Part shown: positions 135-8,152 of the stretch, piece after piece
Numbering within the stretch: position 1 is the stretch's first letter
Layout of the letters: every line of letters starts with the position of its first letter
Assembly: GCA_037380845.1 (NCBI GenBank)
Contig: JARRRI010000017.1
Coordinates: forward strand, 58,271-81,143
Direction: 5' to 3'
DNA: 22,873 nucleotides
Source of the DNA: Candidatus Sulfobium sp.
Lineage (GTDB): Bacteria; Nitrospirota; Thermodesulfovibrionia; Thermodesulfovibrionales; UBA6898
Position numbers and translations under genes: made by a program
Notes under the pieces: generated by a model
Databases searched by the model: none
The model's input: only the letters and a program-made list of their open reading frames with translations
Told to the model about the DNA's origin: nothing

Positions 135-1481
135 TCACTCACTTGAGTCGTACTCTTTCAATTTGTCAAAAAGATTCTTATAACTTATGCCCAAAATTTC
201 CGCCGCCTTCGTCTTGTTCCCTGCAGTTGTCTCCATAGCCTGTCTGATGAGCTTCTTCTCAAGGTCTTTCACTGCCTCCTTGAGGGACAGGAAGGAATTT
301 GTCTGCCTGGTCCCGGAGATCCCGCCGACCGGAAAATTTATGCTCCCCTCATTGATAACGTCCTCCCGGGTCATCAGTACGGCCCTTCTCATCACGTTTT
401 TCAGTTCTCTGAGATTGCCGGGCCATGGGTATGTCTTCAGCTCTGTCAACGCACCATCCGTAAGTCCTCTGATCTGTCTGTTCAGCTCATTGGCCGCCTC
501 GAAGGCAAATTTCCTGGCAAAGAAAGGGATGTCATCGGCCCTGTCCCTGAGCGGCGGAAGCGTTATTATGAATTCACCCAGACGGTAGTACAGGTCCTCC
601 CGAAATTCCTGTTTCTTCACCCTCATAACCAGGTCCTTGTTAGTGGCCCCTATTATGCGGAGGTCTGCATCGACCGGAACGGTAGAGCCGAGAGGATATA
701 TAGTCTTCTTCTCGATGAAGCTCAGGAGTTTGCCCTGAACGTGGGCCGACATGTTCTCTAGTTCATCAAGGAAGATCGTGCCGTGATCGGCCGTCTCAAA
801 GTATCCCTTCTTGTCCCTGTCCGCGCCGGTAAAAGCCCCTTTCTTGTAGCCGAAGAGTTCACTCTCAACGAGGAGGTCCGGGATCAGCCCGATATCCACA
901 CAGACAAACGTCTTATCGAACCTTTTGCTCATGTTATGGATAGACTCGGCCACGAAAGACTTGCCGGTTCCGGTCTCTCCCTGAATGATAACCGAGAAAT
1001 CCGTCGGTGCGATCTGCTTCACCTGTTCTATCACTTTCTTCATAGCCGGACTCTTTCCGAATTGGTGTTCGAGTGACGAGTCGAGAGCAGCGCTGGTCCT
1101 GTTCATCTGGAGTTCCAGTTCGCGCCTCTCTGTCGCCCTCTTCAGGGTAACCACCAGTCTTTTGAAGTCGGGCGGCTTCTCGGCAAAGTCATAGGCGCCC
1201 CCTCTTATGGCCTCTACCGCCTTCTGGATGTCGCCGTATCCGGTAAGGATAATGACCGGAACACCCGCGTCGATTTTTTTCAGTTCTTTCATTGTCCCGA
1301 TGCCGTCCATGTTCGGCATTTTCAGATCAATAAGGGCGGCATCCGGTCTTTCCGTTCTGAACAACTCGATGGCGCTCAACCCATCTTCAGCTTCGAGAGG
1401 AAGGAAACCCTCCTCCTGCAGGACGTCCCGCACTATTCCCCTTAAATCCCTGTCATCATCTACGATCAGCACTCTATTCAT
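135..1481 (-). CDS. Sigma-54-dependent response regulator (NtrC/AtoC family: receiver + AAA+ + Fis-type HTH)
   Basis: Receiver (VLIVDDD, ALIDLKMP, FAEKP), Walker A GETGTGKS, ESELFG..GAFTGA, Walker B IFLDE, WPGNLREL, C-terminal GNKTKAAEILGIS. Start moved from 1523 to ATG at 1481 (MNRVLIVDD), preceded by GGGAGAGGA. Confidence 0.95.
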   Translation of the reverse strand: MNRVLIVDDDRDLRGIVRDVLQEEGFLPLEAEDGLSAIELFRTERPDAALIDLKMPNMDGIGTMKELKKIDAGVPVIILTGYGDIQKAVEAIRGGAYDFAEKPPDFKRLVVTLKRATERRELELQMNRTSAALDSSLEHQFGKSPAMKKVIEQVKQIAPTDFSVIIQGETGTGKSFVAESIHNMSKRFDKTFVCVDIGLIPDLLVESELFGYKKGAFTGADRDKKGYFETADHGTIFLDELENMSAHVQGKLLSFIEKKTIYPLGSTVPVDADLRIIGATNKDLVMRVKKQEFREDLYYRLGEFIITLPPLRDRADDIPFFARKFAFEAANELNRQIRGLTDGALTELKTYPWPGNLRELKNVMRRAVLMTREDVINEGSINFPVGGISGTRQTNSFLSLKEAVKDLEKKLIRQAMETTAGNKTKAAEILGISYKNLFDKLKEYDSSE

Positions 1482-1509
1482 GTCCGTCCTCTCCCGGGAA
1501 TTTTCGTTA

Positions 1510-3051
1510 TTATGTGCTCTCAACTATCTTTTCCTCCACCAGGGGGAGGTAAATCCTGAATTCGGTCCCCTCGCCTGACCTGCTGCGTACGTCTATCCGT
1601 CCGCCGTGCTGTTCGATGATACCGTATACAATAGAAAGACCCAGCCCGTTGCCTCTGCCCGAGTCTTTTGTAGTGAAAAAGGGCTCGAACATGCGCTCCC
1701 TGGTCTCTTCGTCCATGCCCCTGCCGCTGTCAGAAATCATAACACGGACGTACTTCCTGCGTCCCCCCTTCTGCCTGTCGGCTGCCTCCTTGTCTTCTAT
1801 AATCACCGACGCGCTCTCCATGCTCAACCTTCCGCCGCCGGGCATAGCGTCCCGCGCATTCACGCACAGGTTCATGATGACCTGTTCTATCTGGACGGGA
1901 TCGGCCTTTATGACCATCTCACTTTCCGAAAGGGAAAGCTCCAGGCGGACGTCCTCTCCCAGAATATTGGCCAGGAGCGGCTTCATCTTTCTGATGAGTG
2001 TATTGATTTCGGTCGGATGCAGGATTGTCGTCTGTGTCCGGCTGAAGGTGAGAAGGCTCTGGATAAGGCCCTTTGCTTTTGTGACGGACATATTGACACG
2101 CCGGGTATAATCCCGGAGGGGACTGTTATCATATAATTTCCTTTCCAGCATGTAGACCGAACCCTCAACAGTCGAGAGGATATTGTTGAAGTCATGGGCA
2201 ATACCCCGTGCGAGCGTGCCGATGGCTTCCATTGTCCGGGCGAGCCTGAGTTTCTCTTCAAGAGACTTTTTCTCTTTCTCTCTCTCCCTCAGATTCTCCG
2301 ACATCGCATTGAAAGCCTCTGCGAGTCTTCCCACCTCATCGTGTGTCTCTACAGGCACTTTCCCGACCGACTCACCCATGCCCAGCGACTTCACCGCATC
2401 GGTCAGACGTGTAAGAGGCAGGGTAACCCTCCTGATCGCAAAGAAGATAATTATCGCGCCCATGAAAAGAAATATTGCCGCGATCATGGCGCTCCTGACC
2501 AGGATGGTCGCCGTCTCACTGCCGAGAGCCTTCTTGTCCATGACAACCCGTACAAAACCTATGACACTTTCTTTTCTGACGGGAGGCGTATCCTCGAAGT
2601 AAAGCAGTTCCGGCGGGGCTGCGTGCAACATCAATGTAACCGGCGAGACTATCTCTATAGCGTCTGCGCTTTCCGAGACGACCGGCAGTTCCACACCAGA
2701 GACCATTGACGTGAACTCTTCGGTATTGCCGCTGAAAGATCTTTTTTCCTCATCGAACAGGACCCTCCTGTCCGCGGTCAGCACCTGGACCGCAAGGACG
2801 TTTTTCTGTTTGAGGACGGCCCGCGCCGCGTCCCTCAACAATGTCCTGTTTTCCGCGAAGACAGCTGTCTTCGAACCGTAAGCGAGAAGCGCGGAAAGTG
2901 CCTTACCCTCCTTTACGAGGTTTTCCTTGACCCGGCTCTTCTGATAATAGACAAAGAAAAGAGCGAAGATTGCCGACAGGATCATGATCGAAATGGAAAA
3001 CGACCTGAAGACTCTGAAACTGAAACTCTCTCTTAAGTTCTTAATCCACAT
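1510..3051 (-). CDS. Membrane sensor histidine kinase (2 TM, periplasmic domain, HAMP, HisKA, HATPase)
   Basis: Two hydrophobic segments flanking a ~150-aa extracytoplasmic region; HAMP (PLTRLTDAV..DEVGRLAEAFNAM); H-box GIAHDFNNIL; N-box NLCVNARDAM; DSGRGM, FEPFFTTK, GNGLGLS. Start overlaps the upstream gene by 11 nt. Confidence 0.95.
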   Translation of the reverse strand: MWIKNLRESFSFRVFRSFSISIMILSAIFALFFVYYQKSRVKENLVKEGKALSALLAYGSKTAVFAENRTLLRDAARAVLKQKNVLAVQVLTADRRVLFDEEKRSFSGNTEEFTSMVSGVELPVVSESADAIEIVSPVTLMLHAAPPELLYFEDTPPVRKESVIGFVRVVMDKKALGSETATILVRSAMIAAIFLFMGAIIIFFAIRRVTLPLTRLTDAVKSLGMGESVGKVPVETHDEVGRLAEAFNAMSENLREREKEKKSLEEKLRLARTMEAIGTLARGIAHDFNNILSTVEGSVYMLERKLYDNSPLRDYTRRVNMSVTKAKGLIQSLLTFSRTQTTILHPTEINTLIRKMKPLLANILGEDVRLELSLSESEMVIKADPVQIEQVIMNLCVNARDAMPGGGRLSMESASVIIEDKEAADRQKGGRRKYVRVMISDSGRGMDEETRERMFEPFFTTKDSGRGNGLGLSIVYGIIEQHGGRIDVRSRSGEGTEFRIYLPLVEEKIVEST

Positions 3052-3925
3052 TCTTCGCCCATCCCGCTGTGTTCTTATTTGACTCTATGCCAAGCTTCCG
3101 CAGAACCTTACTGTTGACGATGATCCCGGATACCCTCGCATCAACTCTTATCTGACCCGGTGCGCCCGCTTCATGAAGCCTTTTCGATATTGCACCCGCC
3201 TGGGCACCCATATCGAAGGAGCCCACGGTTAGCGCCGCTGCCGCTCCCATATCGACATATTTTTTCGAGAAAGTGAAAATCGGGACCTTGCTTTCAAATG
3301 AGAAAAGGAGCATGTAATCTACGGTCGCGGAGTTCAGCAGCCCCGGTTCGGGCAGCATCCAGAATATGTCTATTCTTTCCTTCAGGCTGTCCATCAGTGA
3401 AGGCACGGAGCCGGATGTTTCCGCCTTTTCGGCCACGAGCTCGATCCCCCTTGCCGCAGCCTCTCTCATCGCCTCTTTTACGTAGGCATCCGAGTTGTTC
3501 GGATCATACACCAGCCCGATCCTCTTCGCCCCCGGGAACAGCCTTGTCATGGCATCGAGGTATTTCGCAGGTGATATATACATGCTGACTCCAGATATAT
3601 TCCTTCCTTCGCCGTCAGACAGAGGAGCGGGGACCATGACATAGATTACCGGCAGATTTTCGACACTCCGCACCTTCGCGAGCGCGTCCATCCCTATCGC
3701 GACCACAACATCGGGATGGAGCCGATAGATCTGGCTGGTCACCGCATCCTGGTCCGGGGTTAGCGTTGTTACGCTGCAGTCGCAGGAACTTCGAAAACCT
3801 TCAAGGGCCTCGTTATAGGGCCCGATATCGGCGCTCTTCAGAACTGCCGCTTCATAAGCCCACGAACGTCCGGCAAGGCAGAGTATGATTAACAGAATTA
3901 AAAGGAATGATATCCTTCTTTTCAT
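3041..3925 (-). CDS. Periplasmic substrate-binding protein (ABC_sub_bind-like), no cognate permease or ATPase in the window
   Basis: Signal peptide MKRRISFLLILLIILCLAGRSWA; motifs PYNEALEGF, NISGVSM, KRIGLVYDP, FWMLP, FSKKYVDMGA, DMGAQAG, IVNSKVLRKLGI. Start placed at ATG 3925 (ORF track gives 3949) because it begins the signal peptide and follows GGGGA. Confidence 0.85.
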   Translation of the reverse strand: MKRRISFLLILLIILCLAGRSWAYEAAVLKSADIGPYNEALEGFRSSCDCSVTTLTPDQDAVTSQIYRLHPDVVVAIGMDALAKVRSVENLPVIYVMVPAPLSDGEGRNISGVSMYISPAKYLDAMTRLFPGAKRIGLVYDPNNSDAYVKEAMREAAARGIELVAEKAETSGSVPSLMDSLKERIDIFWMLPEPGLLNSATVDYMLLFSFESKVPIFTFSKKYVDMGAAAALTVGSFDMGAQAGAISKRLHEAGAPGQIRVDARVSGIIVNSKVLRKLGIESNKNTAGWAKNVD

Positions 3926-3990
3926 CCGTCCCCACGGAAATGTTTTCAATGAGTTATGATAACGTAACCACCGTTAAAATTCTATATTAT

Positions 3991-4016
3991 TGTAACGCAT
4001 CCGCTGCTTAGTTACA
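3991..4016. promoter_or_regulatory. Inverted repeat TGTAAC-N14-GTTACA, candidate transcription-factor site upstream of the SBP-HK-RR genes
   Basis: TGTAAC at 3991-3996 and GTTACA at 4011-4016 in an AT-rich intergenic stretch. Function is inferred. Confidence 0.35.
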
Positions 4017-4021
4017 TAAAT

Positions 4022-4039
4022 ACGGCCTTTTTCGGCCGT
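4022..4039 (-). terminator. Short GC hairpin, possible weak terminator downstream of the radical SAM gene
   Basis: Minus strand ACGGCC-GAAAAA-GGCCGT followed by ATTTATGT; poor U-tract. Confidence 0.3.
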
Positions 4040-4210
4040 CACCTCTGCGAAAGCCGCGTCTCTTTTTTTAGAATGCATTCCTGCGCGCCGGCAGACGGGC
4101 CCGATTGCTACCGGGAATGAGTCAAACGTGAGGCGGTCTCTTCTTGATAAGGGGGTATAAAGGGGTAAATATGACTCCGGCGGTGCCTCTCTTTTAAACA
4201 GGGAATTCCG

Positions 4211-5518
4211 CTATGCCAGCCCGTATTTGACGTCCTGCCTGACCATCGTTTCCAGGGTAGCATCGAGATAGGGCTTTCTGCAGTCCACTCCGTCCATGTC
4301 GCCGTCGCGGACGAATTTCATGTAGCGACAGCCTCCGAAGCATAAGGGAAGATAGGCGCAGTCGAGACATTCTTTGTTCTTCCAGCTATCCCGCCCATGA
4401 GGTTGTCTCCCCAGGGGCACTCCGCTTTTCAGGTGGCCGACCTTGAATTCCTCCCTGCCGATCATACCGGGACATTTGTAGATACTCCCGTCATAGTTGA
4501 CCAGCAAGTGGAGATCCATATCCATCGAGCAGACTGCGGGCCCTATCCTGTTTGTCTTATAACCACCTCTGAGTATTTCTTCTCTCAACATCAGGGTCGC
4601 TTCCGCAATCCATTCTTCATTATATGTGACACAACCATCACGAAAGCCGGCAGGAGCGATACCTTCGCTTTCGTTAGTTACAGGCTCAAAGCGTATGCTC
4701 CGGATTTTTTCGGGGGTGAGACCGCGCTCCCCGAGATCATCAAGCAGTTGCGGGAAAACCCCGTAATTGTGCTCCATGTAATTTCCCGTCACGGTGACTT
4801 TCAGGATATCACTGACTTCCCGAAGGTTCTTCACGATGGCATCGAAGGAGCCTTTCCCGCCTTTGAAAGGCCTGCACCGGTTATGTATGTATTCAGGCCC
4901 GTCGATCGGCACGGCAACCTCCTTAAGGCCGGCATAGGCAAGACTCTCAGCCATGCGAGCAGTCAGGAGACTTCCGTTTGTATTCATATAGCCAAGATAC
5001 AGAATGCCGTTTTCATCGGCGCACTTCTTCAATCTTCGCGACAGAGACAATACGGCATCCTCGCTTAAGAGCGGTTCGCCACCATAGAAGGTGACAATAA
5101 TCTTTTCATCGCCCTTTCTCCCTTCGAGCGATTCTGCCCACTTCTCCACAGCAGCGGTAACAGATTCAGCGGTTTCATCGGTCATATAAAGCCAGCCCTT
5201 CCTCCGCCCTTCGAAGCAATAAATACAATTGAGATTACAGTCCAGGTTCACGGCAACTTTGAGGCCCAGAACCCTGCTTTCCGCATTCAGGCACTCCATG
5301 AATCCAAGCATCTCCCTTAGCTCCTCTTCGCGACTGCCGACCAGTATGCCGAGACCTGTCAGAGTGTTTTGCTCTTCTTTGGTGACGACGCCGGACTTCA
5401 AGTCCTCCAGCATGGAGTCAGGAACTGAGATGATGGAAGCCTTCCTGGTAGAAAAGAGTATCACCGATGAGGAGTCATCAGGATCGGGATAAATTAGACA
5501 ATATTTGGAGAGTGTCAT
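4211..5518 (-). CDS. Radical SAM/SPASM-domain peptide maturase (resembles the 'geopeptide' radical SAM maturase family)
   Basis: CxxxCxxC (CNLNCIYC), FYGGEPLL, TNGSLL, IDGP..HN..R; complete SPASM pattern C-x13-G-x4-C ... Cx2Cx5Cx3C (CLDCAYLPLCFGGC) ... C; ~80-aa N-terminal extension; directly downstream of a short Cys-Cys peptide gene. Family name is from memory, not from a search. Confidence 0.92.
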   Translation of the reverse strand: MTLSKYCLIYPDPDDSSSVILFSTRKASIISVPDSMLEDLKSGVVTKEEQNTLTGLGILVGSREEELREMLGFMECLNAESRVLGLKVAVNLDCNLNCIYCFEGRRKGWLYMTDETAESVTAAVEKWAESLEGRKGDEKIIVTFYGGEPLLSEDAVLSLSRRLKKCADENGILYLGYMNTNGSLLTARMAESLAYAGLKEVAVPIDGPEYIHNRCRPFKGGKGSFDAIVKNLREVSDILKVTVTGNYMEHNYGVFPQLLDDLGERGLTPEKIRSIRFEPVTNESEGIAPAGFRDGCVTYNEEWIAEATLMLREEILRGGYKTNRIGPAVCSMDMDLHLLVNYDGSIYKCPGMIGREEFKVGHLKSGVPLGRQPHGRDSWKNKECLDCAYLPLCFGGCRYMKFVRDGDMDGVDCRKPYLDATLETMVRQDVKYGLA

Positions 5519-5535
5519 AACTGACTCGTTAAAGG

Positions 5536-5561
5536 GAGGGAAGGGACACGCCCCTTCCCTC
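5536..5561 (-). terminator. Perfect 10-bp stem-loop between the peptide and maturase genes (leaky terminator or 3' stabiliser)
   Basis: Minus strand GAGGGAAGGG-GCGTGT-CCCTTCCCTC followed by CCTTT; begins 11 nt after the peptide stop codon. Confidence 0.6.
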
Positions 5562-5572
5562 GTTCATTCCGC

Positions 5573-5674
5573 TTACTTGATCATTCTCGCACCGCCGCCC
5601 GCGGCGCAGCATGCAAACAGCGCAATGTCTTTCGTCTTCATACCCTCCGTTAGCACCTTGACTCGATTCTTCAC
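5573..5674 (-). CDS. Putative RiPP precursor peptide, 33 aa: MKNRVKVLTEGMKTKDIALFACCAAGGGARMIK
   Basis: Translated by hand: GTG at 5674-5672, TAA at 5575-5573; SD TAAGGAGG (5690-5683) 8 nt upstream; Lys-rich leader-like N-terminus, Cys-Cys and Ala/Gly-rich C-terminus; lies immediately upstream of the rSAM/SPASM gene. Not in the ORF track. Confidence 0.88.
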   Translation of the reverse strand: MKNRVKVLTEGMKTKDIALFACCAAGGGARMIK

Positions 5675-5699
5675 CTTCTTTGCCTCCTTAAGGGAATAG

Positions 5700-5716
5700 G
5701 CATCCCAAGGGGATGC
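5700..5716 (-). other. 7-bp stem-loop between the TonB receptor stop and the peptide SD
   Basis: Plus strand GCATCCC-AAG-GGGATGC, no U-tract. Confidence 0.4.
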
Positions 5717-5719
5717 ATG

Positions 5720-7618
5720 CTATAATTTTACCCTTATCCCTCCCTCTACCCAACGATCAGCATTCTTGTAAGTATCGGTCCAGTACTGAGAGCCGTTAAA
5801 GACATTGTGGACGGTCAGAAATCCCTCGACAGTATATCCTTTCCCCTTATAAAGTGTTTTAATCGCATTGGCGTCAAAGACAAAGGCGTTGTATTTGGCG
5901 TTCATGAAGTCGCTGGCATTCCACCAGATGTACCGCCCCCTTAGAGAGGCACGAAAGGTCTTCCCGTCGTCGTATTTGAGCGCCAAATCGTAAGTATATT
6001 GGGGGTTGTCCTTGATCTCTTCATCCGTCTCAAGGTCCTCGCTGTGAACGTATGTCGTCGCAGCCCAGAAGGTAAAGTTATGGAAGGGCATCGTCTTCAT
6101 ATCAACTTCGAAGCCCCGCCTTTGCAGCCTGCCCCCGTTCACTACAGTCCAGGTGCCCTCCTCTGCTGAAATATCCATGTTCTCGAGGGCATCATGAACG
6201 TCGTGTATGAAGCCGGTTACCTTGATCCATACATATCTCAGCGCCCCTGTCTCGACCCCGGCCTGGTAGGACCACACAGTCTCTGATGTAAGGTCAGGGT
6301 TCTTTCGGAAATATACGCTGTCAGAATAAAGAGCGCCTATAGGGGGAATGCTGAAACCCCGGGCGATGTCAGCCCGAAACAGGGTCTTCTCCGCAATCTC
6401 ATATGTCAATCCAAGACTCGGGCTGACGATATTCTCTCCCAGGCTTGTATCTTCTATGTTGACATAATCGTATCTGATGCCGGGTGTCAGGGTCAGCTTA
6501 TCCAATGAAATCGTGTCGTTGACGAAGACCGCGGCGGACTGTTCATCGAACCGTTGACCGCCCAACGCATCTGCTCTCGTCCAACTCGAGTCATAATCGA
6601 ATCCCACTACTACTGAATGTATCCCCTGCCTCAAGTTCCACTTCGCACTGCCGCCGTACACCCCCTCCTTATCAGTGGAAGTGTCTTCGGAAAGTTCGAC
6701 AAGGTCCTTGGTCAGAAAATCGAGCTTTTCGTGCGCGGCCCTGAGTGAGACATCGAGAGTCATTTCATCGCTCAGTCTGCTGTTTACGGAGAGTGTGGAA
6801 AGGAGCGTCTCTGTTCTGTCCTCGAACTTGTATCCAAGATACCCGAAATCCCCTTCCGTTCTGTGGTTCTTTCCGTAAAGGAAGGTCAGAACCGCAGTCG
6901 TGTCCTTTTCAATATCATACGATAACTTTCCATAAAAATTGTTCTGCCAGTTGTCTTCCCATGTTCTCAGGCCGTCAGTCTGGAGTCTACCGGCAAAGAG
7001 ATACCATCCGAACTTGTCCTTTTTCCCCGCGAAGGAACCCCTGAAATCTCCAGTATTACTTTCGCCGTATGACCCTGAAAGAAGGCCCTTTGTCTCCTGC
7101 TTCGCCGAAGGCGGCTTAGTGATGACATTGACTATCCCCCCTAAGGACGAGCCCCAGACAGAAGAGGCGGGGCCCTCGATCACCTCGACCCTCTCGATCA
7201 TCTGGACCGGTATAAGAGCTGGATCGGGCACGCCCCCAACAAGATTAAGATTATTCAGACTCACCCCGTCGATCAAAATTACCACATGCTCGTTGCGGGA
7301 GCCCTGAATCTGGGCTGCAGCAATGTTTCCGGGACTCGCCCCTGCAAAAGATACCTGTACGCCGTTTATAGTATTGAGCACGTCGGCCAGGGTATGGGCA
7401 TTCATCAGCTCGATATCATCCGCGGTCACGACCTCCACGTTCTCTGCGACGCGCGAGATAGATTTAAGGCTCCGGGTTGTCGAGATAACCTTCAACTCCT
7501 CCGGTTTGAAATACAGGAGCAGAAAGTTCTTCTCCTGTTGAGTCATGGAAAAAGAAGGGACCGTAATGCAGAAGATGGTAAAAAGGATTACCAGGAATAT
7601 GAGAGTTTTTCTAACCAT
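5720..7618 (-). CDS. TonB-dependent outer-membrane receptor (plug + beta-barrel)
   Basis: Signal peptide MVRKTLIFLVILFTIFCITVPSFS; plug motifs VISTTRS..VEVVTADDI..TLADVL, IQGS..VVILIDGV, IERVEVIEGPASSVWGS..GGIVNVITK; barrel motifs LTPGIRYD, NPDLTSE, VHNVFN. Start moved from 7639 to ATG 7618 (GAGG upstream). Confidence 0.93.
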   Translation of the reverse strand: MVRKTLIFLVILFTIFCITVPSFSMTQQEKNFLLLYFKPEELKVISTTRSLKSISRVAENVEVVTADDIELMNAHTLADVLNTINGVQVSFAGASPGNIAAAQIQGSRNEHVVILIDGVSLNNLNLVGGVPDPALIPVQMIERVEVIEGPASSVWGSSLGGIVNVITKPPSAKQETKGLLSGSYGESNTGDFRGSFAGKKDKFGWYLFAGRLQTDGLRTWEDNWQNNFYGKLSYDIEKDTTAVLTFLYGKNHRTEGDFGYLGYKFEDRTETLLSTLSVNSRLSDEMTLDVSLRAAHEKLDFLTKDLVELSEDTSTDKEGVYGGSAKWNLRQGIHSVVVGFDYDSSWTRADALGGQRFDEQSAAVFVNDTISLDKLTLTPGIRYDYVNIEDTSLGENIVSPSLGLTYEIAEKTLFRADIARGFSIPPIGALYSDSVYFRKNPDLTSETVWSYQAGVETGALRYVWIKVTGFIHDVHDALENMDISAEEGTWTVVNGGRLQRRGFEVDMKTMPFHNFTFWAATTYVHSEDLETDEEIKDNPQYTYDLALKYDDGKTFRASLRGRYIWWNASDFMNAKYNAFVFDANAIKTLYKGKGYTVEGFLTVHNVFNGSQYWTDTYKNADRWVEGGIRVKL

Positions 7619-7641
7619 ATAGCCTCGCCCCCAAAACACAA

Positions 7642-7647
7642 ATTATA
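7642..7647 (-). promoter_or_regulatory. Candidate -10 box (TATAAT) for the TonB-peptide-rSAM transcript
   Basis: Perfect TATAAT 23 nt upstream of the 7618 start; no good -35. Confidence 0.3.
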
Positions 7648-7738
7648 TTAACGACAGAAAAGTCCGGAACAGTATACCTGATATAGAGCGGGGTTTTCCA
7701 CGACACGCAAAAAAATTTGCTATCCGAACCGGACAATA

Positions 7739-8152
7739 CTATTTGGCCCTTCTCACCTCCGCTACCTGTATCCTCGTCACGGCACGTTCAAGGGAAGACT
7801 CTGCACGCGCAAAATCTATCTCTTCAGCTTTTCTAAGTCTCTCCTCTGCCCGTTTCATGGCCGCTTTGGCCCTGTCAACGTCGATATCCTCGGACCTCTC
7901 GGCACTGTCGGCCAGGACAAGCACTTTTTCCGGCCCGACCTCAGAGTATCCCCAGTTCACAAAGAAATATATTGACTGGTTCCCCTTTTTCGCGGTGAGC
8001 ATGCCTATTTTCAGGGTAGTGACAAAGGGGACATGGCCCGGCAGTACTCCAAATTCCCCCTCGCTGCCGCTGGAAGTGACCCCGTCAACCTCCTCGCTGA
8101 ACACAAGCCCCTGGGGGGTGACTATTTCGAGAAGCAGTTTTCCTTCACCCAT
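7739..8152 (-). CDS. atpC: F1 ATP synthase epsilon subunit
   Basis: LEIVTP, GEFGVLPGHVP, IDVDRA; last gene of the atp cluster. Confidence 0.97.
   Translation of the reverse strand: MGEGKLLLEIVTPQGLVFSEEVDGVTSSGSEGEFGVLPGHVPFVTTLKIGMLTAKKGNQSIYFFVNWGYSEVGPEKVLVLADSAERSEDIDVDRAKAAMKRAEERLRKAEEIDFARAESSLERAVTRIQVAEVRRAK

Follow-up and report, generated by a model that had tools for sequence, protein, structure and literature searches.

An open reading frame (ORF) of 33 codons on the minus strand, at 5573..5674 of the window (the whole stretch of 22,873 nucleotides that was analysed), is probably a translated precursor gene for a RiPP of the geopeptide type, with the radical SAM/SPASM enzyme encoded 54 nt downstream acting on its product. 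The features that bear directly on this reading are:

5683..5690, minus strand: Shine-Dalgarno sequence TAAGGAGG, read directly, followed by an 8-nt spacer (5682-5675) and then the GTG
5573..5674, minus strand: candidate geopeptide-type precursor gene of 33 codons, with a GTG start at 5674-5672 and a TAA stop at 5575-5573
5536..5561, minus strand: GC-rich stem-loop in the spacer that separates the peptide and maturase genes, with a 10-bp stem (GAGGGAAGGG/CCCTTCCCTC) and a 6-nt loop
4211..5518, minus strand: radical SAM/SPASM maturase of 435 aa, TIGR04280 (NCBIfam/Pfam, alignment and fold model)

The probable precursor gene and its relatives

The ORF translates as MKNRVKVLTEGMKTKDIALFACCAAGGGARMIK (33 aa), which consists of a leader of about residues 1-16 containing V5-K-V-L-T-E-G11, the pair Cys22-Cys23 and a small-residue tail, AAGGGARMIK. 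Coordinates and translation, with the GTG 8 nt after TAAGGAGG, are exactly those of the first-pass annotation, and GGAGG-type sites are also found 5' of homologous peptide genes in related loci. The same annotation described the ORF as missed by the ORF track, which fits our observation that the exact peptide, with either M or V as first residue, was not found in a collection of 15 billion proteins that does contain the adjacent enzyme, unnamed. A Pfam search of the peptide gave no match. A start at M12 in place of the GTG was ruled out, the conserved leader lying upstream of M12 and the ATG of an orthologue being equivalent to the GTG. A reading of L-F-A-C as a lipoprotein signal was ruled out by eye, because the segment before it is charged and not hydrophobic.

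When a profile of 27 relatives, excluding the window peptide itself, was run against all six frames of the 3.18-Mb genome, positions 5597-5671 of the window gave the top match (21 bits, E 0.0013), the runner-up having an E value of 0.44. The orthologue from the same genus (L040), whose neighbouring enzyme is 76-77% identical to that of the window, has an ATG at the same place and likewise 33 codons, and is identical at 18 of 33 residues. Of those 18 conserved codons, nine carry synonymous differences, the codons of the two cysteines (TGC to TGT) being in this group, and pS between the two genes is 0.76 (saturated) against a pN of 0.25. These comparisons indicate that the amino-acid sequence of the peptide is under purifying selection and that the ORF is a real gene, conserved as a protein beyond chance. 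The stretch is present as DNA in marsh and salt-marsh metagenome runs, and the ORF reads the same in DNA contigs of runs X9 and X10, which speaks to its presence only.

Proteins above the cut-off of TIGR04280 are encoded in 86 of the 390 genomes of the window's class. We examined 35 distinct class loci (L009-L038 together with L039, L040, L056, L057 and L058), and in 34 of them the enzyme gene is preceded by a short ORF in the same orientation that encodes a hydrophobic V/I-L-x-x-G leader, with Cys-Cys about 10 residues later; of these 34, one is truncated at a contig end, another is partly N-masked, and in two the ORF lies 455 and 709 nt upstream. The sole exception, L057, has no Cys-Cys peptide ORF upstream of the enzyme. 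A second set of 30 cross-phylum loci (L063-L092) comes from genomes of Nitrospirota, Thermodesulfovibrionales, Geobacteraceae, Desulfuromonadales, Desulfobulbales and Desulfurivibrionaceae and from one Gammaproteobacteria MAG; the search behind this set reported roughly 570 TIGR04280-like loci. Two of these loci begin too near the enzyme gene to be judged, and the peptide ORF is present in all 28 informative ones, 11 of which have a profile E value above 0.1 and were accepted by position and motif. One carrier of the system, Geotalea toluenoxydans JCM 15764 (L086), is cultured.

Across an alignment of 28 peptides, which the window peptide joins without gaps, G11, C22 and C23 never vary; the window peptide shares with its relatives a leader of the form I/V-x-V/I-L/I-x-x-G with Cys-Cys at a fixed distance from it. 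The first-pass annotation had singled out VLTxG and CC as motifs to look for near homologous radical SAM genes; a V-L-x-x-G leader and Cys-Cys are indeed kept upstream of the homologous enzymes. Its description of the ORF as a precursor-type peptide of the adjacent radical SAM/SPASM enzyme is supported by this conservation and by the TIGR04280 partner. The pairing of peptide and maturase holds across phyla.

Several loci depart from the common arrangement. The number of cysteines differs in L078 (2567-2704, a Desulfurivibrionaceae MAG), where a single Cys stands in ...NCAPGSPK, and in L088 (2756-2932, a Desulfobacteraceae MAG), where there are three (...VCCCGPL...). A leader rich in Lys, Ala and Thr, with AKKK repeats and at least 38 residues long, is found in L043/L026/L027, L064, L068 and L073; Cys-Cys is kept in these peptides, the I-V-V-L-D-x-G strand motif is absent, and their enzymes are 42-51% identical to that of the window. 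L054/L021 carry tandem peptide genes (6650-6748 and 6843-6941 in L054) whose products are distinguished by a single residue (N/S), and a separate Shine-Dalgarno sequence stands ahead of each copy. The usual distance between peptide and maturase genes is 50-140 nt, compared with 455 nt in L053/L018, about 709 nt in L058 and about 1.75 kb in L085; in these loci something may have been inserted between the two genes.

The maturase, the modelled complex and the proposed chemistry

The maturase gene is co-oriented with the peptide gene directly upstream of it, 54 nt separating the peptide stop (5573) from the maturase ATG (5518). Its product scores 499.3 bits against the NCBIfam model TIGR04280, 'geopeptide radical SAM maturase' (a hypothetical equivalog with a cut-off of 400), and stays far under the cut-offs of all other radical SAM/SPASM families, the best sub-threshold NCBIfam matches being maturases of Cys-rich peptides and PapB. 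Its nearest named relatives belong to Nitrospirota and Thermodesulfovibrionales MAGs, at 48-51% identity, and the window probably derives from this group.

An alignment of 28 enzyme sequences has the radical-SAM motif CX3CX2C (C94, C98 and C101) invariant, together with C330, C349, C384, C387, C393, C397, C413 and G344 of the SPASM domain. The spacing of the cysteines would assign C330, C349 and C397 to auxiliary cluster 1 and C384, C387, C393 and C413 to cluster 2. This 3+4 spacing mirrors the scheme described for CteB, which has three cysteines at auxiliary cluster 1 and four at cluster 2, PapB and Tte1186 being alike; the cross-linking Cys of the substrate binds auxiliary cluster 1 at an open iron in this scheme (PMC10177961).

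The fold model of the maturase (pLDDT 87.9, pTM 0.88) has an N-terminal domain (residues 1-80) of three strands and three to four helices, with strands at 7-11, 18-23 and 28-33 and helices at 35-42, 47-55 and 63-80, which is followed by the radical-SAM barrel. The best fold match in the PDB is CteB (5why/5wgg; E 1e-20, TM 0.67-0.69), over the full length and including the N-terminal domain; anSME comes second (E 2e-15), followed by TigE, SuiB and ChlB. CteB is also the top solved relative by sequence (E 1.6e-16).

The model of the peptide-enzyme complex reached a score of 0.85 (0.84, 0.85 and 0.85 in three runs), against 0.01 for the best of three controls. Among solved complexes 116 of 157 attain this mark, as do 2 of 215 mismatched pairs, a calibration that holds only roughly here, since our own alignments were used in the model. 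The partner pLDDT is at least 57, and at least 53% of the contacts agree between runs. Peptide residues 4-12 (RVKVLTEGM) contact enzyme residues 26-33, and also 18-23 and 49-56, with a predicted strand pairing between peptide 5-9 and enzyme 28-32 at an expected error below 1 A; peptide residues 17-23 contact enzyme residues 326-337, 349 and 397. As modelled, leader residues 4-12 would add as a strand to beta3 (26-33) of the N-terminal recognition domain, and residues 17-23, ending in Cys22-Cys23, would lie against C330, C349 and C397; these three being assigned to cluster 1 by their CteB-like spacing, the Cys-Cys pair would sit at the ligands of auxiliary cluster 1. Because a solved CteB-CteA complex exists, the favourable score may partly be memory, and the model supports binding rather than showing it.

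We propose that the leader docks on the N-terminal domain of the enzyme with Cys-Cys placed at auxiliary cluster 1, where an open iron would bind a substrate cysteine, as the analogy with CteB, PapB and Tte1186 suggests. The enzyme would then abstract a hydrogen atom near the dyad and bond sulfur to carbon in one or two thioether links, whose acceptors would be either C-alpha atoms of the backbone in the variable tail or positions around the Cys-Cys pair itself. A thioether is our best guess at the chemistry, held at only just short of even confidence, because the nearest relatives (CteB) and the open-iron cluster scheme point to it by analogy. The term sactipeptide or ranthipeptide, in its chemical sense, would here express a resemblance of fold and cluster ligands only. 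The 28-peptide alignment contains no conserved acceptor residue in the core, which counts against a fixed link of the ranthipeptide type, and since L078 has a single Cys, two cross-links cannot be the rule in the family. An aromatic cross-link through the Phe, which the first-pass annotation had entertained, is not supported: F20 is Ser in the orthologue L040, and the column is variable across the family.

A different chemistry on the same genuine substrate is the strongest competing explanation, although we consider it rather unlikely. Here the enzyme would oxidise Cys to a formylglycine-type carbonyl, in the manner of anSME, or would produce some other metal-binding or reactive group centred on the dyad. 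The invariance of only G11 and Cys-Cys, in peptides whose tails lack a conserved acceptor, agrees with this, as do the single-Cys relative L078 and the position of the anaerobic sulfatase-maturing enzyme, which oxidises Cys without making a cross-link, as second-best fold match (E 2e-15). On the other hand, the nearest relative by both sequence and fold, N-terminal recognition domain included, is the thioether-forming CteB, the highest NCBIfam scores below threshold go to maturases of Cys-rich peptides and to PapB, and the 3+4 cysteine scheme would leave an open iron as it does in thioether formers (PMC10177961).

Receptor, sensor and candidate transcript signals around the pair

The peptide-maturase pair is embedded in a larger module of minus-strand features:

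5720..7639, minus strand: TonB-dependent receptor with Plug and 22-strand barrel (domain search), below all curated subfamily cut-offs
5700..5716, minus strand: small stem-loop GCATCCC-CTT-GGGATGC with a 7-bp stem, between the stop of the TonB-dependent receptor and the Shine-Dalgarno sequence of the peptide
3041..3949, minus strand: PF04392 periplasmic binding-protein homologue (Pfam) lacking a neighbouring ABC permease; counterparts in 14 of 20 related loci
1510..3051, minus strand: sensor histidine kinase (sCache_4, HAMP, HisKA, HATPase), neighbour of the binding protein at 13 of 20 related loci
135..1523, minus strand: sigma-54-dependent response regulator, present in the co-linear relatives L040, L047 and L055

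A TonB-dependent receptor gene adjoins the pair in 45 of 50 loci, namely in 19 of 20 class loci with wide flanks and in 26 of 30 cross-phylum loci, where a receptor within 3 kb was counted; contig ends truncate three of the four cross-phylum loci that did not count, and the fourth, L090, lacks a receptor gene. The genes for the binding protein and the kinase are either co-linear with the receptor gene or divergent from it in related loci, and L064 and L068 have the same whole order of atpC, receptor, peptide, maturase, binding protein and kinase (atpC 81-82%). Domain searches of the module and its flanks found no exporter, leader peptidase or immunity gene in or beside it. Past the regulator follow a DUF3108 gene, a glycosidase-like gene and an AhpC/TSA gene.

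Sub-threshold matches of the receptor are to the NCBIfam PCPU, PUIUD, FCYXU and CU motif types (57-96 bits against cut-offs of 700-850), and its best general matches are to BtuB and haem receptors (119-126 bits). The DUF3108 gene (L143 6389-7264, just beyond window position 1) is co-oriented with the sigma-54 regulator gene and downstream of it, across a gap of about 870 nt without an ORF of at least 100 aa.

The conserved TonB-dependent receptor, the orphan binding protein, the kinase and the sigma-54 regulator together point to a product that acts beyond the cytoplasm and is re-imported across the outer membrane and sensed, a reading to which we give somewhat less than an even chance. More speculative, and doubtful as a whole, is the wider picture in which geopeptides are widespread radical-SAM-modified Cys peptides of anaerobic bacteria with an outer membrane (Nitrospirota, relatives of Geobacter, Desulfobulbales). 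They would be released, regained through a dedicated TonB-dependent receptor and sensed in the periplasm by a transporter-less binding protein, a Cache kinase and a sigma-54 regulator, serving as a cell-to-cell signal or as a thiol-based metallophore with new Cys-Cys chemistry, and the trio of receptor, peptide and enzyme could be exchanged as a cassette between close relatives. A constant association of this kind with a TonB-dependent receptor and a sensor module is uncommon among radical-SAM peptides, and if the product is truly a re-imported signal or metallophore, it would represent a new form of peptide traffic among the anaerobic bacteria of sediments.

Comparisons within the genus bear on the exchange of the trio. 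Receptor and maturase of the window are 76-78% identical to those of L040. Compared with L039, from the same-genus genome G271, the receptor is only 48% and the maturase 52% identical, and the L039 peptide, MKEGIVVLSKGVEKTAAATSTCCASGAGSVRK, is a different allele, while the frame (135-8152) is the same, with atpC 92%, the binding protein 71% and the kinase 75-76% identical. Against L039, receptor and maturase thus reach 48-52%, with the flanks kept, and binding protein and kinase are 67-75% identical in all three pairs within the genus. The receptor-peptide-enzyme trio of L039 thus looks to have been exchanged as a cassette, the evidence within the genus amounting to a single difference. Over the larger set of loci, the maturase co-varies with the receptor (Spearman rho 0.63, 276 locus pairs) as it does with the binding protein (0.64, 170 pairs), and there is therefore no receptor-specific signal. 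In another pair of loci, L026 (G238) and L027 (G263), a segment of 3180 nt with the end of the receptor gene, the peptide gene and the maturase gene is 99.94% identical between genomes placed in different families, which points either to transfer in the recent past or to an artefact of binning.

Many thioether peptides made by radical-SAM enzymes act as antimicrobials, and a variable core would suit an arms race. We nevertheless find it improbable that the product is an antimicrobial RiPP, akin to a bacteriocin-like sactipeptide or ranthipeptide, rather than a re-imported signal or metallophore, because neither an immunity gene nor an ABC exporter nor a leader peptidase lies in or beside the module, and the conserved partners are a TonB-dependent receptor of the importer type and a binding-protein/kinase pair.

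The stem-loop that follows the peptide gene (5536-5561) has a folding energy of -21.9 kcal/mol (z -2.3). Its sequence is kept in L040, and L039 has an analogous hairpin formed from a different sequence. In 25 of 29 loci, the spacer between peptide and maturase genes has a folding z of at most -2 relative to mononucleotide shuffles, and T-runs follow in many cases. The hairpin is likely a partial terminator or a transcript stabiliser, and in the mechanism proposed here it would lead to more precursor mRNA than enzyme mRNA. The smaller stem-loop at 5700-5716 is also kept in L040, and its energy is weak (z -1.7). Matches to a sigma-54 promoter (TGGCAC-N5-TTGCW, up to 3 mismatches) are not above chance (61 matches, 72 expected), and none falls in the spacers before the receptor, peptide and binding-protein genes. 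A scan of 3900-7800 for sigma-70 promoters and terminators likewise stayed at chance level, the hairpin after the peptide gene having been missed by the terminator scan because its T-run is weak.

Most loci have a strong hairpin behind the ORF, in many cases with a T-run, and this might also mean that the ORF is a cis-acting leader or attenuator that regulates the maturase, the real substrate being encoded elsewhere. This is very improbable in view of the purifying selection on the amino acids and the invariant Cys-Cys, a complex model that passes its controls, and a genome in which no other Cys-Cys peptide match was found. Eight ORFs of at least 20 aa overlap positions 5450-5760 (311 nt), so that an ORF of this size is by itself no evidence, and no RNA runs containing the window region 4200-7700 were found; even so, a chance ORF in an intergenic spacer is effectively refuted by the profile match, the alignment, the codon evidence and the presence of the ORF upstream of homologous enzymes in several phyla.

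Comparison with known systems

The closest catalogued counterpart of the pair is the geopeptide system of NCBIfam, with which it shares a partner enzyme above the TIGR04280 cut-off and the position of the peptide directly upstream. The difference lies in the peptide, which falls below the cut-off of the curated 'geopeptide' model TIGR04229 (13.4 bits, E 0.054, against a cut-off of 30). This is the sole NCBIfam family that the peptide touches, its residues 7-24 matching profile positions 3-19 from the leader through Cys-Cys, and a six-frame TIGR04229 search of the window's genome did not find the ORF, the top match lying elsewhere (E 0.077). The first-pass annotation had looked to the NCBIfam short-peptide models, geopeptide among them, for confirmation; this came for the enzyme and not for the peptide, which by the curated definition is not a recognised member. 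None of the 27 class and 19 cross-phylum partner peptides reaches the cut-off either (best 24.4 bits), which implies that the curated model spans only a narrow part of the real family and that the failure of the window peptide reflects the model rather than the peptide. The window peptide belongs to a subtype with a small-residue tail (CC-A/T/P-G...K/R), and its nearest named relatives are in Nitrospirota, not Geobacter.

A literature search, with subscription journals largely outside its reach, retrieved no study of geopeptide, TIGR04280 or TIGR04229, and in the available portion of one paper Geobacter is mentioned only for lasso peptides (PMC4289311). With this peptide, a catalogued family that is named in databases and for which we found no study gains a new member, divergent and hitherto unannotated. 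Since gene callers and the curated HMM miss both the window peptide and 46 related ones, an entire family of RiPPs goes unseen in public annotation, although its enzyme is named.

The SCIFF/ranthipeptide system CteA-CteB (PDB 5wgg, 5why), together with PapB and Tte1186, resembles the present pair in its N-terminal leader-binding domain, radical-SAM core, 3+4 SPASM cysteines and cysteine-peptide substrate. The identity of the window maturase to CteB is, however, just 20-22%, and it remains well under the cut-offs of both the SCIFF maturase model TIGR03974 (78.5 bits against 425) and the PapB model (105 against 340). In its 33 residues the window precursor has two Cys, compared with six in forty-five for SCIFF, and it carries neither a CX3D motif nor a Thr acceptor motif. 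Its neighbourhood includes a TonB-dependent receptor and a sensor, an arrangement that to our knowledge has not been reported for SCIFF.

Methanobactin operons comprise the precursor MbnA, MbnBC, the TonB-dependent MbnT and the periplasmic MbnE. The likeness to the window lies in a tiny Cys-containing precursor, a maturase, a dedicated TonB-dependent importer and a periplasmic binding protein. In contrast, the maturase of the window is a radical SAM/SPASM enzyme, its binding protein is tied to a kinase rather than to an ABC importer, and it has no exporter; a Pfam scan of the 8 module and flank proteins, moreover, found no DUF692/MbnB-type protein of the kind that would mark an MbnB/MbnC system.

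In the PqqA-PqqE system, a short peptide is likewise paired with a radical SAM/SPASM enzyme that has a leader-binding domain, and the product is imported via the TonB-dependent PqqU in some bacteria. The receptor of the window scores 31.5 bits on the PqqU model, against a cut-off of 1200, and PqqB/C/D genes are absent. The conserved residues of the two peptides also differ, being Glu and Tyr in PQQ and Cys-Cys in the family described here.
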